Source: Burkholderiales bacterium PBB3 (GTDB taxonomy: Bacteria > Pseudomonadota > Gammaproteobacteria > Burkholderiales > Burkholderiaceae_C). Taken from it: a stretch of DNA of 64,000 nucleotides. Positions 4,605-28,471 of the stretch are shown one piece after another (position 1 is the first letter of the stretch; the number at the start of each line of letters is the position of its first letter). The notes under the pieces are model-generated. The model saw only the letters and a program-made list of their open reading frames with translations, had not been told where the DNA came from and searched no databases. Location: contig NKIK01000003.1 in the NCBI GenBank assembly GCA_002256115.1, forward strand, positions 194,280 through 258,279, read 5' to 3'. A program made the translations under genes and the position numbers.

Positions 4605-5198
4605 CTATTTTAAACCAGCCCAGAGCGCCAACTCTTCAGGAGTTACCCGACCCATCTTGCGGTGCAAGATGGAGCCATCGGCGCTCAACACCACGCTAAA
4701 AGGCAAGCCACCGGTCAGGTTGCCCATGGCGCGTGTCAGCTCGGTGCCCGCCAAACCGGCCATACCCACCGAAAAATCCAGCGGCGACTTCTGCAAAAAG
4801 GCCTGCACCGGTTGCAGCTTGTCCACGGCCAGGCCCAGCACCTGCCAGCCATTGGCTTTATTTTTCAAATAAAAGTCATTGATCAAAGGCAGCTCTTCCA
4901 CGCACGGCGGGCACCAGGTTGCCCAAAAATTGAGCAGCAGAGGTTTACCGGCCAGGCTTTTCATGGGAAGCGTTGTGCCCTGGGGGGTGGGCCATTCGGT
5001 TTGCCAAAAACCTTCTGGCGGCGGCGTACCGGCTGGCGCAGCCACGACCGGCGGGGCGGCTTGGCGCCACCAAGCCAAACCTAGCCCAGCAACCGCAGCT
5101 GCACCCCCCACCGCAACCATGAGTGCGCGCCGCCCCGGCGCGAGCAAGGTGGACGATGCGCCGGGCGTGGCGACGGGTGGTACTGCAGGCTTCTTCAT
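4605..5198 (-). CDS. TlpA/redoxin-family thiol:disulfide oxidoreductase, exported
   Basis: 'FWATWCPPCVEELP' thioredoxin CxxC motif; N-terminal signal/TM region. Confidence 0.8.
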   Translation of the reverse strand: MKKPAVPPVATPGASSTLLAPGRRALMVAVGGAAAVAGLGLAWWRQAAPPVVAAPAGTPPPEGFWQTEWPTPQGTTLPMKSLAGKPLLLNFWATWCPPCVEELPLINDFYLKNKANGWQVLGLAVDKLQPVQAFLQKSPLDFSVGMAGLAGTELTRAMGNLTGGLPFSVVLSADGSILHRKMGRVTPEELALWAGLK

Positions 5199-5788
5199 AG
5201 GGCCTGATCATGCAGCAAACTGCGCAGGGCCGCCGCATCGCCCCGGGGACTGCGACCGCGGTGGTCGGGTTTCAGGGCGCCGCGCAGGTCGTCAAAGTCG
5301 TAAATCAGCAGGTGCACGCCCACGTGCTCCCCCAGCTCCGCGCTGCGCGCCTGGATGCTCAAGGCCTCCACCCGCTCGCCGGTAAAGCCGGTGACGGTGC
5401 TGGGGTCATAACGCACGCCCAGGTCGATCAGACCGATCTCCGCAGATTTGGGGTCATCGCAAAACAATTGCAGGTAAATATCTGAGCGGCGCGTGGCCGT
5501 GCCATGCCAGACCGCGCCGCCAATATAGGGGCGAAACCGCTGCAGCCGGTCCATCCAGCCCAATGCCAGACCGCGCAGCGCGCGCAGCTCCTGCGGCTGG
5601 GTGTCGGCACAAAACAGCGCGATGTAGTCCTCTACATGCGCTTCCAACAGCGCGTTGTCGGGCAAGGCGGTGCGCTCGGGCAGGCCGAGCTGCTTCACAG
5701 CGCGGCGTTTGGCTCCGCCATATTCCAAACCCTCTTCCACCACCAGGCGGGCGGCCACGGCGGCAATTTCTTCTTTCAAGGTATCCAT
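5195..5788 (-). CDS. Conserved hypothetical protein
   Basis: ORF 5195..5803 with coding-like composition; 4-nt overlap with the downstream redoxin gene. I recognise no motif. Start at 5803 or 5788. Confidence 0.5.
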   Translation of the reverse strand: MDTLKEEIAAVAARLVVEEGLEYGGAKRRAVKQLGLPERTALPDNALLEAHVEDYIALFCADTQPQELRALRGLALGWMDRLQRFRPYIGGAVWHGTATRRSDIYLQLFCDDPKSAEIGLIDLGVRYDPSTVTGFTGERVEALSIQARSAELGEHVGVHLLIYDFDDLRGALKPDHRGRSPRGDAAALRSLLHDQAL

Positions 5789-5837
5789 AGGAACATTGTG
5801 CATGCACTGCGTTCGACCTAGTTTGCTACAGTTTTAG

Positions 5838-6390
5838 GTTGCGGTAGGAGCGGAGGTTACCCCCCTCGCCCCCCCGCACAGATCCGTACGTGCGGAATTA
5901 CCGCATGCGGCTCTTGCCTCAGGTAGGTGACGCATAGAAACGATCCTCCGGGTAAGGGTGCAAACTGCGTATGGGTGGTATGAACCGCTGGGCAATACGG
6001 CTGAACCTGCATCATGGCATCTTGGGCTTCTGGCTTCTATGGCTTGGGGCCTTGCCTGTTCCGCCCGTGCCGCGTGGCTCGGGCACCGATGAGATCTCCC
6101 AGCTTCCGAGTAGATCGCTTCCCGGCATGCTCAGGGTCTCAGACCGCGCGGGGTCACAGCATGTCTTGCGATTGACGTCATGCTGCGTGTTGCCTTCTGG
6201 CATAGCAACACCATGGGCACCCCGATTGAATGATTTCGCGGCTCAATGGCTGGCCTGCTGGTCTCCCCTGTCAACGCTTCGATCCACACATCGCGGTGTG
6301 CAACGCATGACTCGGGGCCAGAGTGAGTTCGCTATTTTTTCCCTGTATTGGACTTCCACCAACTACGATCCACCGCCTTTGCCGGCGCAC
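5838..6390 (-). mobile_element. Group II intron-like ribozyme element, apparently ORF-less (553 nt)
   Basis: Read on the minus strand. 5' end GUGCGCCGGCAAAGGCGGUG (6390 downward) resembles the group II consensus 5' GUGCG. Domain V-like GAGCCGCAUGCGGUAAUUCCGCACGUACGGAUC at 5913..5881 has the AGC triad and AC bulge. Domain VI-like GC-rich hairpin has a GUAA loop and a bulged A 7 nt before a terminal AC at 5838. No RT/maturase ORF lies inside. Confidence 0.5.
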
Positions 6391-6456
6391 TGCTATATAT
6401 TTAATAGCTTCTCCCGCACTATCCACAGCCTGAATGGCCGGTTTGGCTTAAATCCA
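6391..6456 (+). repeat. Dispersed repeat, copy 1 (variant core CTTCTCCCGCACTATCCACAG)
   Basis: Aligns with copies 5 and 11 across the core and the right arm '...GCCTGAATGGCCGGTTTGGCTTAAATCC'. Abuts the intron 5' end. Confidence 0.8.
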
Positions 6457-6459
6457 AGG

Positions 6460-6990
6460 GGTAATCCCCCGGCTGTGCCGGGGTGACAGTAGAAGTTTGA
6501 CATTTGCGTTGGTATGGGTGTTCATCGCAGAAACTTCCAATCGTGAGCCGCCAAGCACACGAAAGGAAAAGAGGCGATGGACAAGATAGAAAACCTAAAC
6601 CACACGAAGTGGGACTGCAAGTACCACGTAGTGTCCATACCGAAGGATCGAAGAAAAGTACTGTACGGGCAATTGAGAGTGCACCTCGGAGAGGTATTTC
6701 GGGGGCTGGCCCAACACAAGGAGAGCCAGATAGAGGAAGGGCATTTAATGGCCGACCACGTCCACATGATGATCTCGATACCGCCGAAATACACGGTGTC
6801 CAACGTGGTGGGTTACATCAAGGGGAAAAGCGCGATACACCTAGCTCGGGTGTATGGGGAGAGAAAGAGAAATTTCACGGGGCAAAGCTTCTGGGCGCGG
6901 CGTTACTTTGTCTCGACCGTGGGATGAGACGAGGTATAGCCGCTTTGAGCGGCTCACAATATTGAAAACCCCCGGCTTTGCCGAGGGATG
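6460..6990 (+). mobile_element. Decayed IS200-family element
   Basis: Truncated tnpA flanked by similar subterminal hairpins: CCCCGGC-TGT-GCCGGGG (6467-6483) and CCCCGGC-TTT-GCCGAGG (6970-6986). Confidence 0.6.
6577..6927 (+). pseudogene. IS200-type Y1 (HUH) transposase TnpA, C-terminally disrupted
   Basis: 'HTKWDCKYHVVSIPKDRR', HUH motif 'DHVHMMISIPPK', 'FWARRYFVSTVG' then a stop. The usual C-terminal helix with the catalytic Tyr is missing or frameshifted ('DETRYSRFE' sits in another frame). Confidence 0.7.
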
Positions 6991-6996
6991 GTTATT

Positions 6997-8100
6997 TCAC
7001 ACCAAGCTAGCCAAGGCCGCCGGTGAAAAGTCAGACAGCTCGCTGGTGCGGCCATCGCGCACTTTCAGTGCCCAGTCCGGGTCACTGATGAGGGCGCGGC
7101 CCACGGCTACCAAGTCAAAGTCGCCGCGGTCAAAGCGGCGCATCAACTCGTCCAGCGACGCGGGCTTGGAGCTTTCGCCACCAAAGGCGGCGATGAATTC
7201 ACCGCTCAGGCCCACCGAGCCGACGGTGATGGTCGGGCGGCCAGTGAGCTTTTTGGCCCAACCGGCAAAGTTGAGGTCAGAGCCTTCAAACTCGGGCTCC
7301 CAGAAACGGCGTTGCGAGCAATGGAAGATATCCGCACCTGCGTCGGCCAGGGGCTGCAGCCAGGCGGCCATTTCATCGGGCGTTTGCGCCATGCGCGCGG
7401 TGTAGTCTTGCTGCTTCCATTGCGACAGGCGAATGATGACCGGATAGTCGGGCCCCACTTCAGCACGCACCGCTTTCAAAATATCGGCCGCAAAGCGCCC
7501 GCGTGCCACCAAGTCGCTGCCGCCGTAGCGGTCGGTGCGCGTGTTCATGCCGTCCCAGAAGAACTGGTCGATCAAGTAACCATGCGCACCGTGCAGCTCG
7601 ATGCAATCAAAACCCAGGCGCTTGGCGGCACCGGCGGCCTTGGCAAAGGCGGCAATGGTGTCGGCGATGGCCGAGTCTGTCATGGGTTCACAAAACGCCT
7701 TGCCCGGCTTGGACAGGCCAGATGGGCCGTCCCACGGCATAGGTGGCAGCCAGTCGATGCGGCGGTTAGGCACAGCGCCCACATGCCAGAGCTGCGGTGC
7801 CATCACGCCACCGGCGGCATGCACGGTGTTGATGACGTCTTGCCAACCGGCCAGCGCGTCGTCGCCCCAAAAGCGGGGCACATTGGGGTCGTTGCTAGAG
7901 GCGGGGCGCTCAATCACCGTGCCCTCGGACACGATCAAACCAACTGCCGATGCAGCGCGCTTGCGGTAATACTCGCTCACGTCCTTGGTGGGCACGCCGC
8001 CGGGTGAAAAAGAGCGTGTCATGGGGGCCATGACAATGCGGTTGGCGAGCTTGAGGCTCTTCAGGGCGAAGGGTTGGAACAGCGGTGCAGCGTTAGACAT
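6997..8100 (-). CDS. Old Yellow Enzyme family NADH:flavin oxidoreductase
   Basis: 367 aa. 'LANRIVMAPMTR', 'GFDCIELHGAHGYLIDQF' OYE signatures. Confidence 0.85.
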   Translation of the reverse strand: MSNAAPLFQPFALKSLKLANRIVMAPMTRSFSPGGVPTKDVSEYYRKRAASAVGLIVSEGTVIERPASSNDPNVPRFWGDDALAGWQDVINTVHAAGGVMAPQLWHVGAVPNRRIDWLPPMPWDGPSGLSKPGKAFCEPMTDSAIADTIAAFAKAAGAAKRLGFDCIELHGAHGYLIDQFFWDGMNTRTDRYGGSDLVARGRFAADILKAVRAEVGPDYPVIIRLSQWKQQDYTARMAQTPDEMAAWLQPLADAGADIFHCSQRRFWEPEFEGSDLNFAGWAKKLTGRPTITVGSVGLSGEFIAAFGGESSKPASLDELMRRFDRGDFDLVAVGRALISDPDWALKVRDGRTSELSDFSPAALASLV

Positions 8101-8251
8101 ACAGGCAAAAGGTGAAAGAGTTGCAGATCAAACCAGTTTACGTGGGCTGGCGGGGGCGCGTGGCGCGCAGGGTCTCCCAGGCTACAGCGGCAAACTCTCT
8201 GGTTAGACTGGCCATTACGCAGGTCATTTGAATGTCTAAGCACGCTACTCA

Positions 8252-8305
8252 TTTGATAGCTGCTCCCGCACTATCCACGGGCTGGAAGGCGTATTTCTAT
8301 ATGAA
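8252..8305 (+). repeat. Dispersed repeat, copy 2 (short left-arm form)
   Basis: 'TTTGATAGCTGCTCCCGCACTATCCACGGGCTGGAAGGCG...', 28 nt upstream of the hsdM ATG. Confidence 0.8.
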
Positions 8306-8332
8306 AACTTTAGAATTAAAACTGTCACATTC

Positions 8333-10633
8333 ATGAAAAATCTCGACGCCTTTAAGGCCCACGGCGACGTCATCTGGAACATTGCCAACCTGCTGCGCGG
8401 CCCCTACCGCCCACCGCAGTACCGCCGAGTCATGATTCCCCTCACCGTGCTGCGCAGGCTGGACTGTGTGCTGGAAGCCAGTAAAGACGCCGTCATCAAG
8501 TACCACAAGCAGCTCAAAGAGCAAACAGACAAAGACGGTAAACCCAAGTACGACACCGAAACCATTGAAAAAATGGTCTTCCACAAGTTCAAATTGGCGT
8601 TCTTCAACACCAGCGAATTCACCTTTCAAACCCTGCTGGGGGACCCCGACAAGCTAGTCGCCAACCTGGCGAACTACATGGCCGGCTTTTCCACCCGTGC
8701 CCGCAAGATCATTGAAAAGTTTAAGTTTGAGGAAGAGATCGACAAACTTGAAGAAGCCAACCGCCTGTTTGATGTGGTCAAGCAAGTGGCTGCAGTGGAC
8801 CTGCACCCTGACACCATTCCCAACATTGCCATGGGCTACTTGTTTGAGGACTTGGTGCGCCGCTTTAACGAGCAGGCCAACGAAGAGGCGGGGGACCACT
8901 TCACGCCGCGTGAAGTCATCAAGCTCATGGTGAACCTGCTGTTCACCCATGACGATCTGGTGTACCGCAAGGCCAAACTCATCAAGATTTATGACCCGAC
9001 CTGTGGCACGGGCGGCATGTTGTCGGAGTCTGAAAAGGTCATCAAAGATCCGGAGACGGGTTTGAACCCCAGCGCCGATGTGCGCCTATTCGGCCAAGAG
9101 TACAACCCCGAGTCTTATGCCATCTGCGGCTCCGACTTGATGATCAAAGATGAGGATGTCAAAAACATCGTCTTTGGCGACACGCTAGGTACCGGCAAGC
9201 TCAAGGAAGGCTTTGCTGATGGCGATGGCCACCCAGATGAGCACTTTCACTTCATGCTGGCCAATCCGCCCTTTGGCGTGGAATGGAAGCCTGAAAAAGA
9301 CTTTGTCACCAAAGAGCACGACGCCTTTGGCTTTAAGGGCCGCTTTGGCCCCGGCTTGCCGCGCATCAACGACGGCGCGCTGCTCTTTTTGATGCACATG
9401 ATCTCCAAAATGCAGCCCGCACCCGAGAAAGGTGGCGAGGGCTCGCGTATTGCCGTTGTCTTCAACGGCTCGCCGCTATTCACCGGCGATGCGGGCAGTG
9501 GCGAGAGCAACATCCGCCGCTGGATCATTGAAAACGACATGCTCGAAGCCGTCATCGGCCTGCCCGACCAGCTCTTCTACAACACCGGCATCTACACCTA
9601 TGTGTGGATCGTCACCAACCGCAAGACCGAGCAGCGCAAAGGCCGGGTGCAGCTCATCAACGCCACCGACTTTGCCTGGAAGATGAAGAAAAGCCTGGGC
9701 GACAAACGAAAGCGCATGGGCGATGGCACCGATGGCACGCCCGACCATCTGGCCGCCATCACCCGCCTGTATGGCGACTACGTCCACAACGTGCGCAAGA
9801 CCGTGGCCGAGATTCAAACCAACATCGACCAACGCGGCGAATCTAAACGCGACCAAACCAAAAGCCAATGCGTCAGCAAGATTTTTGACAACCAAGACTT
9901 TGGCTTTCTCAAGATCACCGTAGAGCGCCCTCTGCGCTTGAACTTTGCCGTGACGCCAGAGCGCATTGCCCGCGTGCAAGCCACTGACGCATTTACCGAC
10001 CTGGTAGTCTCACGCAAACGCAAAGACAAAAAAGCCATTCAAGAGCAAATTTTGGTGGGCGAAGCTGCGCAGCAGGCCATTCTGAAAGTGCTGCACGGCA
10101 TGCAAGACGCATTTGCCAATGGCGGACTGGTCAAAGATCGCAGCGTATTTGAGTCACTTGTGAATGACGCTTTTGCAGCAGACGGCATAGAACTGGACAG
10201 CAAGCTCAAAACCGCCTTCTTGTCCGCAGGTGGCTTGGCAGACAAAGACCCCAGCGCCGAAATTTGTTACAACAAAAAAGGCCAGCGCGAGCCCGACGCT
10301 GACCTGCGCGACACAGAGAACGTGCCCCTGCCCCCCGGCATCGCGCTGCCCCTGCCGCTGGACTATGAGAGCAAAAAGAACAAAGGCAAGGTGGACACCG
10401 CGCCCCTGCTGAAACTGGTGCAAGCCCACTGCGAGGCATACCTGGCCAATGAAGTGCTGCCCTACCGGCCCGATGCGTGGATAGACCACAGCAAAATCAA
10501 AGTGGGTTACGAAATTCCTTTCAATCGCCACTTCTATGAATACGAGCCTCCCCGCCCGCTGGAGGATATTGAGGCCGACATCCTGGCGCTGGAAAAAGAC
10601 ATCATGGCGATGCTGAAGGCCGTGACGGCATGA
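8333..10633 (+). CDS. hsdM: Type I R-M system, N6-adenine DNA methyltransferase subunit (long form)
   Basis: 766 aa. 'IYDPTCGTGGML' motif I, 'MLANPPFGVEW' motif IV; operon context with hsdS and hsdR. Confidence 0.9.
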   Translation: MKNLDAFKAHGDVIWNIANLLRGPYRPPQYRRVMIPLTVLRRLDCVLEASKDAVIKYHKQLKEQTDKDGKPKYDTETIEKMVFHKFKLAFFNTSEFTFQTLLGDPDKLVANLANYMAGFSTRARKIIEKFKFEEEIDKLEEANRLFDVVKQVAAVDLHPDTIPNIAMGYLFEDLVRRFNEQANEEAGDHFTPREVIKLMVNLLFTHDDLVYRKAKLIKIYDPTCGTGGMLSESEKVIKDPETGLNPSADVRLFGQEYNPESYAICGSDLMIKDEDVKNIVFGDTLGTGKLKEGFADGDGHPDEHFHFMLANPPFGVEWKPEKDFVTKEHDAFGFKGRFGPGLPRINDGALLFLMHMISKMQPAPEKGGEGSRIAVVFNGSPLFTGDAGSGESNIRRWIIENDMLEAVIGLPDQLFYNTGIYTYVWIVTNRKTEQRKGRVQLINATDFAWKMKKSLGDKRKRMGDGTDGTPDHLAAITRLYGDYVHNVRKTVAEIQTNIDQRGESKRDQTKSQCVSKIFDNQDFGFLKITVERPLRLNFAVTPERIARVQATDAFTDLVVSRKRKDKKAIQEQILVGEAAQQAILKVLHGMQDAFANGGLVKDRSVFESLVNDAFAADGIELDSKLKTAFLSAGGLADKDPSAEICYNKKGQREPDADLRDTENVPLPPGIALPLPLDYESKKNKGKVDTAPLLKLVQAHCEAYLANEVLPYRPDAWIDHSKIKVGYEIPFNRHFYEYEPPRPLEDIEADILALEKDIMAMLKAVTA

Positions 10634-10748
10634 GCGTGAATTTCATCTGCGGTGGAACATGTAAGTGCGGCTTACAAGTTCAATTCGAATCGAATTTCAG
10701 CGAGTCAGTTGTCAAGGAATCCTTGTCAACCGCCTTCAGGGGCAAACG

Positions 10749-12113
10749 ATGAATCTCGCTCCATATCCCGGCCACAAGCGCACAGGCATCGAATGGCTTG
10801 GCGCATTCCCCTCACACTGGGTTGTGAAGCGCCTTCGTTTCGCGACCGAACGCATTGAGCAAGGTTGGTCGCCCCAGTGCGACAACCAGGCAGCCGACGA
10901 TGATGCCTGGGGCGTGATGAAGGTCGGTTGCGTCAATGGCGATCAGTTCGATGCCAGTGAAAACAAGGCATTGCCACCAGAGCTAGACCCGAAAACCGAG
11001 TACGAGCTGCGCCCTGGCGATGTATTGATCAGCCGCGCCAATACCCGAGAGCTGGTGGGTAGTGCAGCAATCGTGCCCTGTGACGTGCGTTCCAAACTCT
11101 TGCTGTGCGACAAGCTGTTTCGCATCGACCTGAGCCCTGAAGTTGATGCCGCGTATTTGACGTTTTGCCTGCGAACTCAGGCAGCGAGACACCAGTACGA
11201 GCAAGAAGCAACCGGTGCGAGTGGCTCCATGCAAAACATTGGGCAGGACACCATCAAGAATTTGATATTGCCATTTCCTCCGTATTCGGAGCAACAGCAA
11301 ATCGCCGCCTTCCTCGACTGGAAGACCAGCCAGATCGACGCGCTGATTGCCAAAAAGCGAACACTGCTGGAGAAGCTCAAAGAAAAGCGCCTAGCCGTCA
11401 TCACCCAAGCCGTGACCAAGGGCCTGAACCCGGATGTGCCTATGCGCGATTCAGGTTCAGGCTGGATTGGTCAAGTGCCCTCAAATTGGGATGTTTTGAA
11501 AATCAAATTTGTGACTGAATTGGCAAGCGGGCACACGCCTTCTCGCTCCGTTGAAGAGTATTGGATTGATTGCACCATTCCTTGGGTTTCTTTGAATGAC
11601 TCAAAGATGCTCCGTGAGAAGGACGCCATTTCTGAAACGCACTACCAAATCAGCGAACTAGGCCTGGCAAACTCATCTGCAAGACTGTTGCCGGCTGGGG
11701 TTGTAGTCTTCTCGCGGGACGCTACGGTTGGACTTTGCGCAATTACTGAAGTCCCAATGGCCGTCTCGCAGCACTTCATTGCCTACATTTGCGGGGAAAA
11801 AATCAGTGGAAAGTATTTGCTATTTGTTCTCAAAGCAATGAATCAACACTTGCAGAGCCTTCAGACTGGTTCAACAATTGTCACCATTGGTATGCCGGAG
11901 GTTCGTAGTTTGATATGTCCGCTGCCGACAAGCGCAGAACAGGCTGACATAGTCGATCACATAGATTCAGTGACAGCAAGAATTGATCAAATGTTGGCAA
12001 ACGCCGAGACAGCCATCGCCCGCCTCACCGAATACCGCTCCGCCCTCATCACAGCAGCCACTACCGGCAAGATCGACGTGCGTGGCTGGCAACCTTTGGA
12101 GTCATCCCCATGA
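10749..12113 (+). CDS. hsdS: Type I R-M specificity subunit
   Basis: Start at ATG 10749 ('MNLAPYPGHK'). Two target-recognition domains separated by conserved coiled spacers ('EQQQIAAFLDWKTSQIDALI', 'EQADIVDHIDSVTARIDQML'). Confidence 0.85.
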   Translation: MNLAPYPGHKRTGIEWLGAFPSHWVVKRLRFATERIEQGWSPQCDNQAADDDAWGVMKVGCVNGDQFDASENKALPPELDPKTEYELRPGDVLISRANTRELVGSAAIVPCDVRSKLLLCDKLFRIDLSPEVDAAYLTFCLRTQAARHQYEQEATGASGSMQNIGQDTIKNLILPFPPYSEQQQIAAFLDWKTSQIDALIAKKRTLLEKLKEKRLAVITQAVTKGLNPDVPMRDSGSGWIGQVPSNWDVLKIKFVTELASGHTPSRSVEEYWIDCTIPWVSLNDSKMLREKDAISETHYQISELGLANSSARLLPAGVVVFSRDATVGLCAITEVPMAVSQHFIAYICGEKISGKYLLFVLKAMNQHLQSLQTGSTIVTIGMPEVRSLICPLPTSAEQADIVDHIDSVTARIDQMLANAETAIARLTEYRSALITAATTGKIDVRGWQPLESSP

Positions 12114-13243
12114 AATTTGAGACCTTCAAAGCGGGCACCTGGACGCCGCGCTACCAGTACAAGAGTTTTGAGCCGGTGCTGGTAGACCACGCCTGGATAT
12201 GGGAAGACTCCACCATCAACGCGCTGCTCGAATCTGCCAATCGGGCGTTGGGCGAGCTGAATGCGTTCTCACTGATCGTGCCGGACATTGACCTGTTCAT
12301 TGAAATGCACGTGGTGAAAGAAGCGCAAACCTCCAGCCGGATTGAAGGCACGCAAACCGGCATGGACGAAGCGCTGATGACCGAAGACCAGATTCAGCCC
12401 GAAAAGCGGGACGACTGGCGCGAGGTGCGCAACTATGTGGATGCCGTGAACGGTGCCATTGCCGAGCTGCAGACGCTGCCGCTGTCTAACCGCTTGTTGC
12501 GCAAAACCCATGAAATTTTGATGCGGGGCGTGCGCGGTGAGAACAAACAGCCTGGGGAGTTTCGCATCAGCCAAAACTGGATTGGCGGCTCCAGCTTGAT
12601 GGACGCGGTGTTTATTCCGCCGCACCCGGAAGGCGTGCCAGACCTGATGAGCGACTTGGAGAAGTTTTGGCACGATGAGAGCATTACCGTGCCGCACCTG
12701 ATTCGCCTGGCCATCAGCCACTACCAGTTTGAGACTATTCACCCGTTTCTGGATGGCAATGGACGCATTGGGCGACTGCTGGTGCCGCTGTATTTGGTGA
12801 GCAATGGGCTGCTGGCGAAGCCATCGCTGTACCTGTCAGACTTTTTTGAGCGTAACCGCGCCAGCTATTACGACGCACTGATGCGGGTGCGTGTGTCCAA
12901 TGACATGATTCATTGGGTGCGGTTTTTCTTGCAGGGCGTGGCGGAGACGGCCACAAAGGGTCGCAATGTATTCAAGGAAATTTTGACACTGAGGACGGAT
13001 GCTGAGCACAAATTGCTTTCATTGGGCAAGCGCGCGCCTAACGCAAAACAAGCACTCAACTTGCTATACCGGCGTCCTATGTTGAGCGCCATGGACTTGG
13101 AACGCAGCTTGGGCGTAAGCCATCCGACTGCGAATGCCTTATTGCGCGACTTCATTAGGCTGGGGTTTTTGAGAGAGATCACCGGCGCTTCTCGGCACCG
13201 CCTGTATGTGTTCGAAACTTACCTTGATCTCTTCACAAGGTAA
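12110..13243 (+). CDS. Fic-family (AMPylase-type) protein embedded in the type I R-M operon
   Basis: Fic motif 'HPFLDGNGRIGRLL'. Upstream inhibitory-helix-like 'SSRIEG' fits (S/T)xxxE(G/N). ATGA overlap with the hsdS stop (12110-12113). Confidence 0.9.
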   Translation: MKFETFKAGTWTPRYQYKSFEPVLVDHAWIWEDSTINALLESANRALGELNAFSLIVPDIDLFIEMHVVKEAQTSSRIEGTQTGMDEALMTEDQIQPEKRDDWREVRNYVDAVNGAIAELQTLPLSNRLLRKTHEILMRGVRGENKQPGEFRISQNWIGGSSLMDAVFIPPHPEGVPDLMSDLEKFWHDESITVPHLIRLAISHYQFETIHPFLDGNGRIGRLLVPLYLVSNGLLAKPSLYLSDFFERNRASYYDALMRVRVSNDMIHWVRFFLQGVAETATKGRNVFKEILTLRTDAEHKLLSLGKRAPNAKQALNLLYRRPMLSAMDLERSLGVSHPTANALLRDFIRLGFLREITGASRHRLYVFETYLDLFTR

Positions 13244-13303
13244 GGGAAATCAATTTCCCTTACATTAAGTCCAGCATAAGGTAAAGATTAGGCCTGCCTA
13301 ACC

Positions 13304-16300
13304 ATGAAAAAGCACACCGAAGCCCGGCTGGAAGATGCCATTGTGGACAGCCTGACCCGTGAGGGCGGCTTTGCGTTGGTGGACTATCGGCATGGCCCTG
13401 CCGCAGGCCGCTATGACAAGGCGCTGGCGCTGGACCCGGCGCTGGTGCTGGGCTTTATCCAAACCACCCAGCCCAAGGTATGGCACAGCCTGCATGCCAT
13501 CCACAAGGACGAAACGCCCAAGGTGGTGCTCGACCACCTGGTCAAAGAGCTGGACACCAAGGGCATGCTCAAGGTGCTGCGCCAGGGCTTCAAGTGCTAT
13601 GGCAAGAAACTGCGCGTGGCGGTGTTTGCCCCCAACAACGCCATGAACCCCGACACGCTGGCGCTGTACGGGCACAACCAACTGACGGTAACGCGCCAGC
13701 TGTATTACAGCGACGCCCACAGCAAGTCGCTGGACCTTGTGCTGTTTTTAAACGGCCTGCCCATTGCCACGGCAGAGCTGAAGAACCCGCTCTCCGGCCA
13801 AACGGTAGAAGACGCCAAGCGGCAATACAAGCGCGACCGCGATGCCCGCGAGCTGCTGTTTGAATTTAAAAAGCGTGCGCTGGTGCACTTTGCGGTAGAC
13901 CAAGACCAGGTGTTCATGGCCACGCGCCTGAGTGGCGACAAGACTTTCTTCTTGCCCTTTAACCTGGGCGATAACGGTCACCCAGGCAACCCGCCTGCGG
14001 CAGACGGCGGCTACCGCACGGCCTACCTGTGGCGCGAGGTGTGGCAGCGCGATAGCTTGCTGGACATCGTGGGCCGCTTTATGCACCTGCAGGAGGAGGA
14101 CAAGCGCATCCTCACCAACGAGGGCATCAAGAAGATTCACAAAGAGACCATGATCTTCCCGCGCTACCACCAGCTGGACGCGGTGCGCAAGCTGGTGGTC
14201 CATGCCCAAGCGCATGGGCCAGGGCGCAACTACCTGGTGCAGCACTCGGCGGGCTCGGGCAAGTCCAACTCCATCGCCTGGCTGGCGCACCGCCTGAGCA
14301 GCCTGCACGATGCGGCTGACAACAAGGTGTTTGACTCGGTGATTGTGGTGACCGACCGGCAGGTGCTAGACACGCAGTTGCAAGACACCATTTACCAGTT
14401 TGAGCACAAGCAAGGTGTGGTGCAAAAGATTGACGAAGACACGCGTCAGCTGGCCCAGGCGCTGGCGGGCGGCACGCCCATCATCATTACCACGCTGCAG
14501 AAGTTTCCGTTCATTACCGAGACGCTGGACAAGCTGCGCAAAGAGAACCACCCCGGCATTGCCATTGACACCCGGGACAAGCAGTTTGCCGTGATCGTGG
14601 ACGAGGCGCACAGCTCGCAGTCGGGCGAAAACGCCATGGAACTCAAAGGCGTACTGAACGCGCACCGCATCGAAGAAGAAGCCGCCCAATACGTGGCGGA
14701 GCAAGGGCTGGACTCGCAGGACGATGAAGACGAAGCCGACCCTCTGGCCGGCGTGGTGCGCGAGATGCGCAAGCGCGGCAAGCAAAGCAACCTGAGCTTT
14801 TTTGCATTTACCGCCACGCCCAAGTTCAAAACCAAAAAGGTGTTTGACGAGCCCGGCCCCAACGGGCAGTCCCCCTTTCACCTGTACACCATGCGGCAGG
14901 CGATTGAGGAGAAGTTCATCCTCGATGTGCTCAAGCACTACATCACCTACGAGGCGTACTTTCGCCTGGTGCAGGTGGGCGACGATGACCCGCATGTTGA
15001 GCGCAAGAAGGCAGCCCGTGCGCTGGCCCGCACGCTCACCTTCCATGAGGTGAACCTGCGCAGCAAGACCGAGGTGATGGTGGAGCACTTTCGCACCCAT
15101 GTGCGCCACAAAATCGGCGGCCGTGCCAAAGCCATGGTGGTCACCGACGGGCGCTTGCACGCGGTGCGCTACAAGCAAACGTTTGATGCCTACATTGCCG
15201 AGAAGGGCTACACCGATGTGAAAACGCTGGTGGCATTTTCAGGCATGGTGGAAGACCCGCGCTTTCCCGGCAAGAACCTGACCGAGGTGGGCATGAACGG
15301 TGGCATCAAAGAAAAAGAGCTGCCCGAAAAGTTTGAAAGCGCCGAATACCAAGTGCTGCTGGTGGCCGAGAAGTACCAAACCGGCTTTGACCAGCCCTTG
15401 CTGCACACCATGTATGTGGACAAGAAGCTCACCGGGCTGCAGGCGGTGCAAACCTTGTCGCGCCTGAACCGCAGCTGTGTAGGCAAGGAGGACACCTTCA
15501 TTCTGGACTTCAGGAATACCCCCGAAGAGATTTTTACGGCCTTCAAGCCCTATTACGAAGACACGCCCACCGATCTGCTGACGGACGCGCAGCACCTATA
15601 TCGACTGCACCACCAGATTGAAGAAACGGGGCTGATCTTTGAAGAAGAGGTGAACGCGTTTGGTGCGGTGTACTTCAAGTCGGTACGCAAACAGTCTGTA
15701 AGTGACCACGCAGCCATGAACGGCGTGCTGGACCAAGCCGTTGACCGGTTTAAGGAGCTGGATGAAGATGAGCGCGAGGAAACCAAAGCGCTGCTGGTGA
15801 ACTTTCGCAACCTGTATGCCTTTATGTCGCAGGTGATTCCCTACCAAGACTCGGATCTGGAAAAGCTCTACACCTACCTGCGCTTTTTGCTGACCAAACT
15901 GCCGCGCCGCGAGGGCGGGGGCACGGTGCAGCTGGATGAAGAGGTGGAGCTGCAGTACTACCGGCTGCAGAAGATTGGTGAAGGTCGAATCGACCTGTCT
16001 GCAGGGCAAGCACAACCACTCAAAGGCCCCAACGATGTGGGCACCGGGCAGGAGGATGCACCGATTCGACTCTCCGAACTGATCGACCTATTGAACCAGC
16101 GTTTTGGAACGGACTTTACCCAAGCTGACCAGCTGTTTTTTGATCAAATTCAAGAAGAAGCGATTGAGAGCGACGTACTGCAACAAGCGGCGGAAACCAA
16201 CTCAAAAGAGGATTTCCGCTACGTGTTTGAAAAGGCGTTTGAGGGCTTGGTCATGGAGCGCATGGAGGGGAACGAGGAAATCTTTGGCAAGCTGATGGCG

Positions 16301-16381
16301 GATGGCGAATTCCGAAAACTGGCGCTGGAGCACCTGTTGCACAAGGTGTACCAGAGTTTGAAGAATGGGAAAAAGCGTTGA
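13304..16381 (+). CDS. hsdR: Type I restriction enzyme, R (helicase/nuclease) subunit
   Basis: 1025 aa. 'HSAGSGKSNS' Walker A, 'VIVDEAHSSQSG' DEAH box, 'FAFTATPKFKT'. Confidence 0.9.
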   Translation: MKKHTEARLEDAIVDSLTREGGFALVDYRHGPAAGRYDKALALDPALVLGFIQTTQPKVWHSLHAIHKDETPKVVLDHLVKELDTKGMLKVLRQGFKCYGKKLRVAVFAPNNAMNPDTLALYGHNQLTVTRQLYYSDAHSKSLDLVLFLNGLPIATAELKNPLSGQTVEDAKRQYKRDRDARELLFEFKKRALVHFAVDQDQVFMATRLSGDKTFFLPFNLGDNGHPGNPPAADGGYRTAYLWREVWQRDSLLDIVGRFMHLQEEDKRILTNEGIKKIHKETMIFPRYHQLDAVRKLVVHAQAHGPGRNYLVQHSAGSGKSNSIAWLAHRLSSLHDAADNKVFDSVIVVTDRQVLDTQLQDTIYQFEHKQGVVQKIDEDTRQLAQALAGGTPIIITTLQKFPFITETLDKLRKENHPGIAIDTRDKQFAVIVDEAHSSQSGENAMELKGVLNAHRIEEEAAQYVAEQGLDSQDDEDEADPLAGVVREMRKRGKQSNLSFFAFTATPKFKTKKVFDEPGPNGQSPFHLYTMRQAIEEKFILDVLKHYITYEAYFRLVQVGDDDPHVERKKAARALARTLTFHEVNLRSKTEVMVEHFRTHVRHKIGGRAKAMVVTDGRLHAVRYKQTFDAYIAEKGYTDVKTLVAFSGMVEDPRFPGKNLTEVGMNGGIKEKELPEKFESAEYQVLLVAEKYQTGFDQPLLHTMYVDKKLTGLQAVQTLSRLNRSCVGKEDTFILDFRNTPEEIFTAFKPYYEDTPTDLLTDAQHLYRLHHQIEETGLIFEEEVNAFGAVYFKSVRKQSVSDHAAMNGVLDQAVDRFKELDEDEREETKALLVNFRNLYAFMSQVIPYQDSDLEKLYTYLRFLLTKLPRREGGGTVQLDEEVELQYYRLQKIGEGRIDLSAGQAQPLKGPNDVGTGQEDAPIRLSELIDLLNQRFGTDFTQADQLFFDQIQEEAIESDVLQQAAETNSKEDFRYVFEKAFEGLVMERMEGNEEIFGKLMADGEFRKLALEHLLHKVYQSLKNGKKR

Positions 16382-27140: not shown

Positions 27141-28471
27141 TCACGGGGGTCTGGGCTTGCTATCCTTGTCCCGTGCCATCGCCCTCCCCCACCATCCGCC
27201 GCATTGCCCACCTGGACATGGACGCGTTTTACGCGTCGGTAGAGCTGCTGCGCTACCCGCAACTCAAAGACCTGCCGGTGGTGATAGGCGGTGGGCGCGC
27301 GAATGTGGCGGCAGCCCTGGAGGTACTGCGCCAGCAAGCCGCAGAAGACGCGCCCGAGCTGGAGTGGGATGCCGCCGCGCAGCGCGCCGCACTGCGCCGC
27401 ATTCCCATCGATGCGTTTGCTCGCCTGGCGGACTACACCGGCCGCGGTGTGATCACCACCGCCACCTATGCCGCGCGCCAGTTTGGTGTGGGCTCGGCCA
27501 TGGGTCTGATGAAGGCCGCCAAGCTGTGCCCGCAGGCCATTCTTTTGCCGGTAGATTTTGAAGAATACCGGCGCTACTCGCGCCTGTTCAAATCCATCAT
27601 CACCGAGATTGCACCGCTGATGGAGGACCGCGGCGTGGACGAGGTCTACATCGACTTCACCGACGTGCCCGGCGGCCAGCGCGAGGGCGGCCGCGTGCTG
27701 GCGCGTCTGATTCAAAAGGCGATTTTGGACGCGACTGGTCTGACTTGCTCAGTGGGCGTGGCACCCAACAAACTGCTGGCCAAGATGGCCAGCGAATTCA
27801 ACAAGCCGCGCGGCATCTCTATCGTGTTTGAGGCCGATGTGCCGACCAAGGTGTGGCCGCTGGCCTGCCGCAAGATCAACGGCATTGGCCCTAAGGCGGA
27901 CGAGAAGCTCAAGCGCTTTGGTATTGAAACGATTGGCCAACTGGCCGAGCGTGATTTGCAGTGGCTGATGGATACCTTTGGCCAGCGCACTGGAGCCTGG
28001 CTGCACGCCGCCAGCCACGGCCAGGACGACCGCCCGGTGGTGACGGAAAGCGAACCCGTGAGCCTGAGCCGCGAGACAACTTTTGAGCGCGACCTGCACG
28101 CCGTGCGCGACCGCGCCGAGCTGGGGGCAGTCTTCACCCGCCTGTGCGAGCAGGTGGCGGCCGACCTGCAGCGCAAGGGCTACGTCGGCAAAACTATCGG
28201 CATCAAGCTGCGCTATGACGATTTCAGCGGCGTGACGCGCGACCTGACGGTGGAGCAGTACACCGACGATGCAAAAACCATCCGCCAACTGGCTGGCCAG
28301 TGCCTGAAACGCGCGCCGCTGCAGAAGAAGCTGCGGCTGCTGGGTGTGCGCGTGGGGGCGCTGGCAAACCGTGCCGACCTCCCTGGATTAATAGCCAAAA
28401 GTGCCTTGCAGGCCGTGGATAGTGCGGGAGCAGCTCCTGAATTAATAGCGGTTAACGGGGAGCTCTTTTAA
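27116..28471 (+). CDS. dinB: DNA polymerase IV (Y-family)
   Basis: 'IAHLDMDAFYASVELL', 'VDEVYIDFT', 'SVGVAPNKLLAKMAS'. The last ~25 codons run through repeat copy 5. Confidence 0.9.
   Translation: MAWRHRSPITGVWACYPCPVPSPSPTIRRIAHLDMDAFYASVELLRYPQLKDLPVVIGGGRANVAAALEVLRQQAAEDAPELEWDAAAQRAALRRIPIDAFARLADYTGRGVITTATYAARQFGVGSAMGLMKAAKLCPQAILLPVDFEEYRRYSRLFKSIITEIAPLMEDRGVDEVYIDFTDVPGGQREGGRVLARLIQKAILDATGLTCSVGVAPNKLLAKMASEFNKPRGISIVFEADVPTKVWPLACRKINGIGPKADEKLKRFGIETIGQLAERDLQWLMDTFGQRTGAWLHAASHGQDDRPVVTESEPVSLSRETTFERDLHAVRDRAELGAVFTRLCEQVAADLQRKGYVGKTIGIKLRYDDFSGVTRDLTVEQYTDDAKTIRQLAGQCLKRAPLQKKLRLLGVRVGALANRADLPGLIAKSALQAVDSAGAAPELIAVNGELF
28381..28462 (-). repeat. Dispersed repeat, copy 5 (full-length form, inverted orientation)
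   Basis: 'CCCTGGATTAATAGCCAAAAGTGCCTTGCAGGCCGTGGATAGTGCGGGAGCAGCTCCTGAATTAATAGCGGTTAACGGGGAG'. Confidence 0.85.

Follow-up and report, generated by a model that had tools for sequence, protein, structure and literature searches.

The window analysed here, by which we mean the whole stretch of 64 kb, carries on its minus strand a 553-nt element (5838..6390) located 34 nt upstream of a conserved gene (5195..5803, minus strand) that encodes a 202-aa protein assigned to no Pfam family. The initial annotation had placed the element close upstream of this gene and in the same orientation, and both statements are correct. The gene is the first of a conserved block, in which it is followed by the genes for a redoxin, accB, accC and prmA. 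In an exact look-up of the gene product, the 202-aa form had no match and the 197-aa form matched only a 1.4-kb contig that is identical to the window. Named homologues of this protein point to a Rhodoferax-like host within the Comamonadaceae. In five related assemblies, the gene block is preceded by a spacer of 107-160 nt and a divergent mpl gene; no mpl gene was found anywhere in the 64-kb window, and synteny with the relatives ends at a copy of IS200.

On its 5' side, the element borders on a copy of a dispersed intergenic repeat (6391..6460, minus strand; about 60-70 nt, ..GTGGATAGTGCGGGAGMAGCT..N..TAGCA), the 3' end of which constitutes the 5' exon of the intron described below. At least 11 copies of this repeat are present in the 64-kb window, and their similarity stops precisely at ..TAGC(A/G), that is, at the 5' junction of the intron. 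The 3' end of the element is directly adjoined by 14 nt, CUAAAACUGUAGCA (5824..5837, minus strand), which are unexplained; this short stretch is absent from the empty orthologous sites and resembles a second copy of the last 14 nt of the repeat. Such empty sites are found in four related loci (L007, L008, L009 and L014; relatives are designated here by L numbers), where the downstream gene has an orthologue with 95% identity at the protein level and the intron is absent. In all four, the orthologous repeat copy is uninterrupted (..GTGGATAGTGCGGGAGCAGCTATTAAATATGTAGC(A/G)) and only 21 nt separate it from the start region of the gene. Because the closest relatives possess the same repeat, uninterrupted and without an intron, we consider the element to be lineage-specific and dispensable.

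The repeat copy that borders on the element adjoins, at its other end, a defective IS200 on the opposite strand (6460..6998, plus strand), the limits of which were set by homology to IS200 copies from plasmids. Its transposase, TnpA (6577..6927, plus strand), matches the Pfam family Y1_Tnp (E 4.4e-33) over profile positions 2-107 of 121, with an internal deletion of about 120 nt and without the C-terminus. A functional connection between the intron and the IS200 transposase, either of the IStron kind or in the form of a RAYT/REP link, was considered and rejected, given the opposite strands, the separate ends and the ordinary IS200 homology, which stops near 6460, at a distance of 70 nt from the intron, with the host repeat in between. 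A simple promoter scan of 5700..7100 detected no sigma-70-like site, and in a terminator scan of the same region, only the hairpin at the right end of IS200 was terminator-like, with no terminator in the element.

The element at 5838..6390 is a copy of a bacterial group II intron, with matches to two Rfam families that are far beyond chance. The RF02005 model (group-II-D1D4-6) is matched over its full length at 6356..6134 on the minus strand, with 166.6 bits (E 2.6e-48), where the gathering score is 49 bits; the relatives score 164-202 bits, which places the element at the low end of the range. The RF00029 model (Intron_gpII, D5/D6) is likewise matched in full, at 5915..5838 on the minus strand, with 37.6 bits (E 1.5e-5 in a local scan of 1.1 kb), slightly (2.4 bits) below its gathering score of 40 bits. 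This shortfall is uninformative because intact, full-length relatives themselves score only 32-47 bits. The single-sequence minimum free energy fold of the 553 nt has a z-score of 0.09 and is uninformative. The 5' end had been likened to the start of a group II intron, and the element indeed begins with GUGCG (GUGCGCCGGCAAAGGCGGUG at 6390, minus strand) and ends with ..AAC at 5838, in agreement with the 5' GUGYG and 3' AY termini of these introns. Both ends coincide with those of the full-length relatives, which can be aligned with it from the first base to the last.

Domain I (6103..6385, minus strand, with an approximate 3' limit; RF02005 covers 6134..6356) was delimited by projecting the consensus structure of 37 relatives onto the element. 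Of the approximately 140 columns with a conservation of at least 90%, only 6 deviate in the element, compared with 0-12 in intact members, and its RF02005 score is similar to those of the intact-looking relatives L042 and L038; judged by these sequence comparisons, its domain I looks normal for the RF02005 family. We relied on conserved-column counts and Rfam scores because the numbers of broken pairs in an RNAalifold structure overstate decay in the 5' part and were discarded. At least one apparently broken pair, that of columns 15/294, arises from the wrong prediction of a long-range helix, behind which the local hairpin that follows GUGCG is compensated, and eleven further 'broken' pairs fall inside the deleted region of domain II.

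The exon-binding site EBS1 (UGCUAU; 6202..6207, minus strand) is located in a hairpin loop immediately 5' of the invariant GAAGGCAA and pairs at all six positions with IBS1 (AUAGCA; 6391..6396, minus strand), the final six bases of the 5' exon. Given that, in the relatives, this loop and the 5' exon covary over about 17 different IBS1 sequences, the assignment is secure. The candidate EBS2, UCAUUCAAU (6225..6233, minus strand), occupies an internal loop that follows GAGCCGCGAAA. The location of EBS2 after this motif is shown by matches of 5-8 bp in L045, L074, L017, L049 and L071, in which the loop pairs with exon positions -13..-7; the longest pairings, of 8 bp, are those of L045 and L074. 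In the element itself, the pairing is weak, with 6 of 7 positions matched to exon -15..-9, all of them A-U, around a central A·C. An alternative EBS2-IBS2 pairing, between AAUAGC (intron nt 54-59) and GCUAUU (exon -20..-15), was rejected because the UAGCGAA of that loop is conserved among relatives with unrelated exons.

Domains V and VI had been recognized in the initial annotation as a hairpin with the AGC triad and an AC bulge and a second hairpin with a GUAA loop and a bulged A close to the 3' end, and both are present. Domain V (5880..5913, minus strand, 34 nt), with its triad and bulge, is aligned by RF00029. Domain VI (5841..5877, minus strand) has the GUAA loop, contains 3 nt more than in the relatives and is intact, with the bulged branch-point A at 5845, the eighth base from the 3' end at 5838. 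The two non-canonical pairs of domain V that had been read as signs of decay both exist and turn out to differ in meaning. The G·A opposite the G of the triad occurs in nearly all of the 37 aligned relatives and is therefore a family trait rather than decay. The C·A mismatch, at the seventh pair in the lower helix, is unique to the element: this pair is Watson-Crick in all 37 relatives, where it covaries among U-A, G-C and A-U, so that the element is the sole exception among the 38 sequences.

The element departs from the family in the central part of the intron. An alignment of 24 full-length members gives the domain order D1, D2, D3, D4 with a conserved ATG, D5 and D6. Domain II consists of a basal helix (GGGAGAUCUC../..GAGAAGUC) around two hairpins and is followed by domain III, about 90 nt that are strongly conserved (..GUAGUACC..CGAACAA..GCGGAG..GUGGAGGGAAGGG..) and that we regard as a genuine RNA domain because compensatory changes support 12 of the 15 pairs predicted for it. 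Domain IV contains the conserved region of the protein start, UCGAUGGG. In the element, domain II is truncated (6038..6100, minus strand): the basal helix is represented by its 5' strand, which is followed by the first hairpin and the beginning of the second one. Of a profile derived from the domain II sequences of 24 relatives, only positions 1-63 of 92 are matched (E 3.9e-5, 6100..6038), and the basal helix is unclosed, its 3' strand having been deleted. As a candidate for this 3' strand, AGAAGCC (intron nt 353-359) was rejected; it corresponds to the RRSQ codons of the protein remnant discussed below.

No match to domain III was found in the element. In a search of the 64 kb with an nhmmer profile, the best match had an E-value of 0.17 and lay elsewhere, while among the loci listed, the same profile matches 77 members of the family. 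With a covariance model of domain III and the filters switched off, nothing in the window exceeded 12.9 bits (E 0.3), and all matches were at unrelated places; L002, L016, L025, L038, L042, L074 and L132 score 67-98 bits with this model. Overall, the domain III models detect the domain III of relatives at E-values of 1e-11 to 1e-25.

Downstream of domain II, the element continues with a remnant of the intron-encoded protein (IEP) gene (5914..6037, minus strand), which comprises the last 35-50 codons or so (..RFSRIAQRFIPPIRSLHPYPEDRF..) with stop codons inside; in full-length relatives, this stretch also holds the 3' side of domain IV. By tblastn with the IEPs of eight relatives, the remnant (..RSQ..RFSRIAQRFIPPIRSLHPYPEDRF..) extends from 6053/6038 to 5901, with the best match to residues 550-599 of the L006 protein (51% identity, E 1.6e-8). 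The same search detected no reverse transcriptase (RT) gene anywhere in the 64-kb window apart from this C-terminal remnant, and the longest minus-strand open reading frame (ORF) inside the element has 63 aa (6012..6203), so that the reported absence of an RT/maturase ORF holds. The junction itself (6038..6041, minus strand; intron nt ~350-353; ..CCAAGCCAUAGAAGCCAG..) joins the middle of domain II to the ..RRSQ.. codons, some 45 codons short of the end of the protein gene. Nucleotide homology to L006 ends at intron nt 349 and restarts at 431, and about 1.36 kb are missing in comparison with full-length relatives of 1,900-1,935 nt. Of the domain IV stem, the 5' half with the start region UCGAUGGG is gone, and only the 3' coding remnant is left. 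The alignments thus show one deletion, through which the element has lost the ORF together with the 3' third of domain II, the whole of domain III and domain IV in its 5' half.

The description of the element as an 'ORF-less group II intron' in the initial annotation accordingly stands in part. It is an intron derivative with correct ends, domains I, V and VI and no RT/maturase ORF; with domain III missing, domain II partial and the 5' half of domain IV gone, it is not a complete D1-D6 ribozyme, and the label overstates what remains of the sequence. The accompanying suspicion that the copy is decaying is correct.

Related introns are numerous. A blastn search of plasmids returned thousands, none of which covers more than 69% of the query. 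Full-length copies that carry ltrA include L001 on Rhizobium jaguaris pRCCGE525a (1,912 nt), two copies in tandem in R. rhododendri (L002) and a copy of about 1,906 nt on a Pseudomonas putida plasmid (L006). The element is 76-80% identical to the plasmid full-length introns over intron nt 1-350 and about 82% identical over nt 431-553. A plasmid hit (H1) that resembled a 503-nt ORF-less copy proved to be an artefact, composed of D5/D6 of one intron and D1 of a second, full-length intron 120 nt downstream. An exact-pattern scan for two invariant domain I motifs, with one genome per species, yielded at least 120 further loci that span Acidobacteriota, Planctomycetota, Proteobacteria and other phyla. 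Among the matches listed, most copies with both ends locatable have 1,900-1,935 nt, and the nearest relatives come from metagenome-assembled genomes (MAGs) of Burkholderiales and Gallionellaceae: L074 (Ca. Rhodoferax bjergmarkensis) is 81% identical to the element, L053 82%, L102 80% and L069 86% over the 127 nt available. The IEPs of the relatives contain RT and maturase regions and no endonuclease domain. Only one RF02005 match, that is, no second copy of the element, was found in the 64-kb window; a full-length relative may be present elsewhere in the genome. An exact-pattern scan of genome contigs for ORF-less copies of similar size returned no matches, and neither did a scan of metagenome contigs for the 23-mer around EBS1; the window's own locus was absent from the former collection and was also missed by the latter scan, which makes both uninformative on copy number.

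The family to which the element belongs is RF02005 (group-II-D1D4-6), with an intron protein that has RT and maturase regions and no endonuclease domain. Membership in class D, which includes RmInt1-like introns and is characterized by the C-terminal IEP motif LX3AX3PXLF[V/A]HW (PMC4615759), was rejected: this motif is absent from the IEPs of the relatives, which end ..LPPCRLMHPHPDARLTVTT.. or ..IPRPRNAHPYPEDRFASHT.., and from the remnant in the element (..IPPIRSLHPYPEDRF..). Of the IIB-like classes without an endonuclease, E and F, class F introns such as So.us.I2 (PMC3552965, supplement) resemble the relatives in size (about 1.9 kb), in an IEP of about 430 aa that starts from a conserved ATG and in the lack of an endonuclease domain, a similarity that we note as a lead only.

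The family also includes ORF-less forms. Among the matches listed, these are L038 (668 nt), L132 (679 nt), L042 (688 nt, from a Caldimonas MAG), L016 (747 nt) and L025 (about 856 nt), all with domains II and III and a compact domain IV. Introns of the RF02005 type repeatedly yield complete ORF-less forms. Three other relatives, L039, L105 and L004, are dead fragments without domain III, and by its structure, as judged from the sequence, the element is grouped with these, its complete domains V and VI notwithstanding.

The insertion site deserves separate attention. The intron in L074 occupies a member of the same repeat family at a position 14 nt further upstream and has the 8-bp EBS2 match mentioned above, which suggests that the repeat is a homing site of this intron lineage. 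More generally, sub-lineages of these introns appear to home to generic multi-copy sites, one being the REP-like repeat in Comamonadaceae and another the complement of the ribosome-binding site, mostly in Acidobacteriota. A literature search for group II introns that target REP elements found nothing relevant. The two side observations, on ORF-less forms and on multi-copy homing, may prove more useful than the element itself.

Taken together, these observations indicate that the element is very probably a decaying, non-autonomous relic of a retroelement-type group II intron that is inactive or nearly so, and that is most likely carried in, or adjacent to, the 5' leader of the gene at 5195..5803. 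Under this scenario, a full-length ancestor of about 1.9 kb would have integrated in sense orientation at the 3' end of the REP-like repeat upstream of this gene, presumably guided by the 6-bp EBS1-IBS1 pairing that is still seen in the element. A single internal deletion of about 1.36 kb, evident from the alignments, later fused the middle of domain II to the last 45 or so codons of the protein. It eliminated domain III completely, left domain II without its closing strand and took away the 5' half of domain IV, including the start of the protein. In introns such as Ll.LtrB, the primary binding site of the maturase is in D4a, around the start of the ORF, and this region is deleted in the element; by analogy with these studied introns, the binding site would probably have been lost as well. 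Point changes, seen as the stop codons in the protein remnant and the C·A in domain V, followed. If transcribed, the unspliced element would simply lengthen the 5' leader. An unspliced copy can persist in this location, upstream of the start codon, because the coding sequence is not interrupted, and its position upstream of both the ribosome-binding site and the start codon probably leaves little selection either to keep the element working or to remove it.

Domain III is a catalytic effector that is recruited by domain II (PMC9275481). With no domain III, a broken domain II and neither a maturase nor a maturase-binding site, splicing at a useful rate is most likely impossible, as is mobility. 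At low rates, domains I and V alone support group II chemistry, and domain III can act in trans, so that some residual splicing is possible. The evidence that runs counter to a relic is the good preservation of domains I, V and VI, the branch-point A and the EBS1 pairing. Such preservation implies either that the deletion is recent or that some constraint persists, and it fits a recent deletion equally well.

Several other interpretations account for part of the data. The element could be a functional, splicing-only ORF-less intron that is excised from the 5' leader with the aid of a maturase supplied by a full-length relative elsewhere in the genome. The GUGCG start, the 6/6 EBS1-IBS1 pairing, domain V, domain VI with its branch-point A and the correct 3' end are all compatible with splicing, and bacterial ORF-less introns, although rare, nearly always occur alongside related IEP-encoding introns, which may act in trans (PMC4424553). 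In L003, the only other assembly with this locus, the sequence breaks in domain V, which could be due to sequence that is repeated in that genome. Yet the element has no domain III, only part of domain II and no 5' half of domain IV, whereas the five complete-looking ORF-less relatives all keep domains II and III; moreover, the domain V mismatch is seen in no relative, the EBS2-IBS2 pairing is weak and there is no RT gene within 64 kb, so we regard active splicing of this kind as unlikely. If it did occur, the predicted ligated exons would read ..AUAUAGCA joined to CUAAAACUG.. (also written ..UAAAUAUAUAGCA joined to CUAAAACUGUAGC..). There is a slim chance that the element, as a mini intron devoid of domain III, domain IV and part of domain II, is still capable of self-excision from the 5' leader of the conserved gene, perhaps helped by host factors or by a maturase or domain III acting in trans; were this so, it would be the equivalent, in bacteria, of the reduced introns of organelles.

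The remnant might, alternatively, have been recruited to act in cis on the downstream gene, be it by forming a structured leader, by donating a promoter or by blocking read-through from the IS200 side, and would then be retained for this role instead of for splicing. Its orientation, the distance of only 34 nt from the start codon and a domain I that is conserved at about the level of intact members are in line with such a role, which nevertheless seems improbable, considering that close relatives with a 95%-identical orthologue do without the element, that the simple scans found no sigma-70-like promoter or terminator inside it and that its preservation is equally explained by a recent deletion. 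Still more doubtful, to the point of being hardly credible, is a non-autonomous mobile mini-intron that is mobilized in trans and is spreading from one copy of the intergenic repeat to others. The element is located exactly at the end of a multi-copy repeat, its EBS1 matches the terminal AUAGCA, most of the other repeat copies in the window end with ATAGCA or a similar sequence and L074, with its 8-bp EBS2 match, resides in the same repeat family. There is, however, only one element against at least 11 repeat copies in the 64 kb, and D4a and domain III, which are needed for the formation of the ribonucleoprotein and for catalysis, are deleted.

The interpretation of the element as a relic points to an ordinary outcome, namely, a retroelement copy disabled by an internal deletion. 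Degenerate copies of group II introns are a known kind of object, of which the element is a new instance. It also illustrates that the lack of an ORF combined with good matches to domains I, V and VI does not make a functional ORF-less intron, and that domains II and III need to be checked against full-length relatives before this term is applied.

Compared with the full-length introns of the RF02005 family (the plasmid copies L001 and L006 and those in the MAGs L053, from Gallionella, L102, from Undibacterium, and L074), the element has the same 5' end and domain I architecture, and the EBS1/EBS2 positions, domain V including its G·A, domain VI and the 3' end are alike. The full-length introns encode an RT-maturase of about 430 aa, whereas the element lacks the 3' third of domain II, domain III and the ORF-bearing part of domain IV; furthermore, the EBS1 of the plasmid relatives is UAAGCG, in contrast to UGCUAU in the element. 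With splicing-only ORF-less introns, it shares the absence of an IEP and the retention of the splice-site elements at both ends and of domains I, V and VI, but the ORF-less members of its own family are complete ribozymes. The closest structural parallels are truncated or deleted remnants, which, like the element, derive from retroelement copies by internal deletion and have recognizable ends. In L004, on a Roseibium plasmid, domain II is joined to RT domain 6-7, with a breakpoint in domain II and no domain III, as in the element; L039 and L105 have lost half of domain V, whereas in the element, domains V and VI are complete and EBS1 and IBS1 are matched. The RmInt1 remnants in Sinorhizobium are further examples of truncated group II introns (PMC4181065). 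Finally, the group III introns of Euglena chloroplasts and other organellar introns with degenerated ribozymes (PMC4424553) are similarly reduced and lack central domains; these introns, however, are located inside essential genes and are spliced in vivo with the help of host factors, whereas the element lies outside the coding sequence.

The group II intron remnant (553 nt, 6390..5838, minus strand; RF02005 family, without domain III) sits at the 3' end of one copy of an intergenic repeat of about 60-70 nt, ending in ..GCCGTGGATAGTGCGGGAGCAGCTCCTGAATTAATAGCA, that is dispersed through the window in at least 11 copies. These end at 6391, 8243, 16392, 18375 and 52535 on the minus strand, and at 28450, 34974, 36913, 47376, 48433 and 53550 on the plus strand. 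The repeat had no match in Rfam at gathering thresholds. Related assemblies also carry it, with two copies in L007, one of those whose orthologous locus is intron-free. A second RF02005-family intron, this one with domain III, lies inside the same repeat family in Ca. Rhodoferax bjergmarkensis (L074:7300-8000, a locus that ends 629 nt into the intron). Its insertion point, between ..GATATTGCGCAAGCAGCTA and GUGCG, precedes the window intron's own site in the repeat by 14 nt, and it shows an 8-bp EBS2-IBS2 pairing and a 5-bp EBS1-IBS1 pairing with its 5' exon.

Directly 3' of the window intron are 14 nt, CTAAAACTGTAGCA (5824-5837, minus strand), that comparison with relatives showed to be missing at empty orthologous sites. 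They are identical to the end of the 5' exon at 10 of 14 positions, and by sequence resemble a duplicate of the last 14 nt of the repeat. Target duplication is not expected from group II retrohoming.

Only one other public assembly contains the exact locus, a Logan contig of 1,413 nt from SRR5749613, which is identical to the window and breaks within the domain V loop. Either a repeated intron sequence in the sample or simply low coverage could account for the contig ending there.

Synteny with relatives, in which the divergent gene mpl lies upstream, stops at the repeat and an adjacent defective IS200 copy (6460-6998, plus strand), and no mpl was found within the 64-kb window. The IS200 copy is internally shorter by about 120 nt, through a deletion, than the plasmid copies; it encodes a TnpA of 116 aa (6577..6927, plus strand) covering positions 2-107 of the 121 in the Y1_Tnp profile, has end hairpins at 6467-6483 and 6969-6987, and weakly matches the IS200 5'-UTR RNA STnc490. 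Beyond it are a flavin oxidoreductase of the Old Yellow Enzyme type (6997..8100, minus strand) and ORFs at 8333..10633, 10665..12113 and 13304..16381 (the last of 1,025 aa) which, judged from their translations alone, resemble the components of a type I restriction-modification system. The region 6997-16381 may be an island or the product of a rearrangement.

Among relatives, full-length introns (L001:3501-5412 on a plasmid, L006, L061 and others) show a reading frame without stops over about 600 codons, running from domain I into domain V. The PGAP annotation of ltrA begins within domain I (3532..5355 in L001), and the conserved ATG of these introns is positioned after domain III. A Rhizobium rhododendri plasmid (L002:1162-5105) carries a tandem pair of full-length introns spaced 120 nt apart, both preceded by ..CGCTTA.

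Loss of the ORF with retention of the ribozyme seems recurrent in the RF02005 family, because about 55 loci with both ends locatable, among the matches listed, include five complete ORF-less introns (L038, L132, L042, L016 and L025; 668-856 nt) whose hosts span four different phyla or classes. All five have domains I-III, a compact domain IV, and domains V and VI. L025 also contains a nested additional 5' intron fragment.

Of the matches listed (L015-L134), 90 have a 5' exon that could be read, and in 30 of these ..CAT N3-14 CTCC(T)(T) stands immediately before the intron, the complement of the start codon and Shine-Dalgarno sequence of a gene on the opposite strand. At these loci, the majority of which, among the matches listed, are from Acidobacteriota MAGs, the EBS1 loop sequence is AGGAG(A/C) or AAGGAG. 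They look like a sub-lineage of the RF02005 family with the complement of the ribosome-binding site as its homing target.
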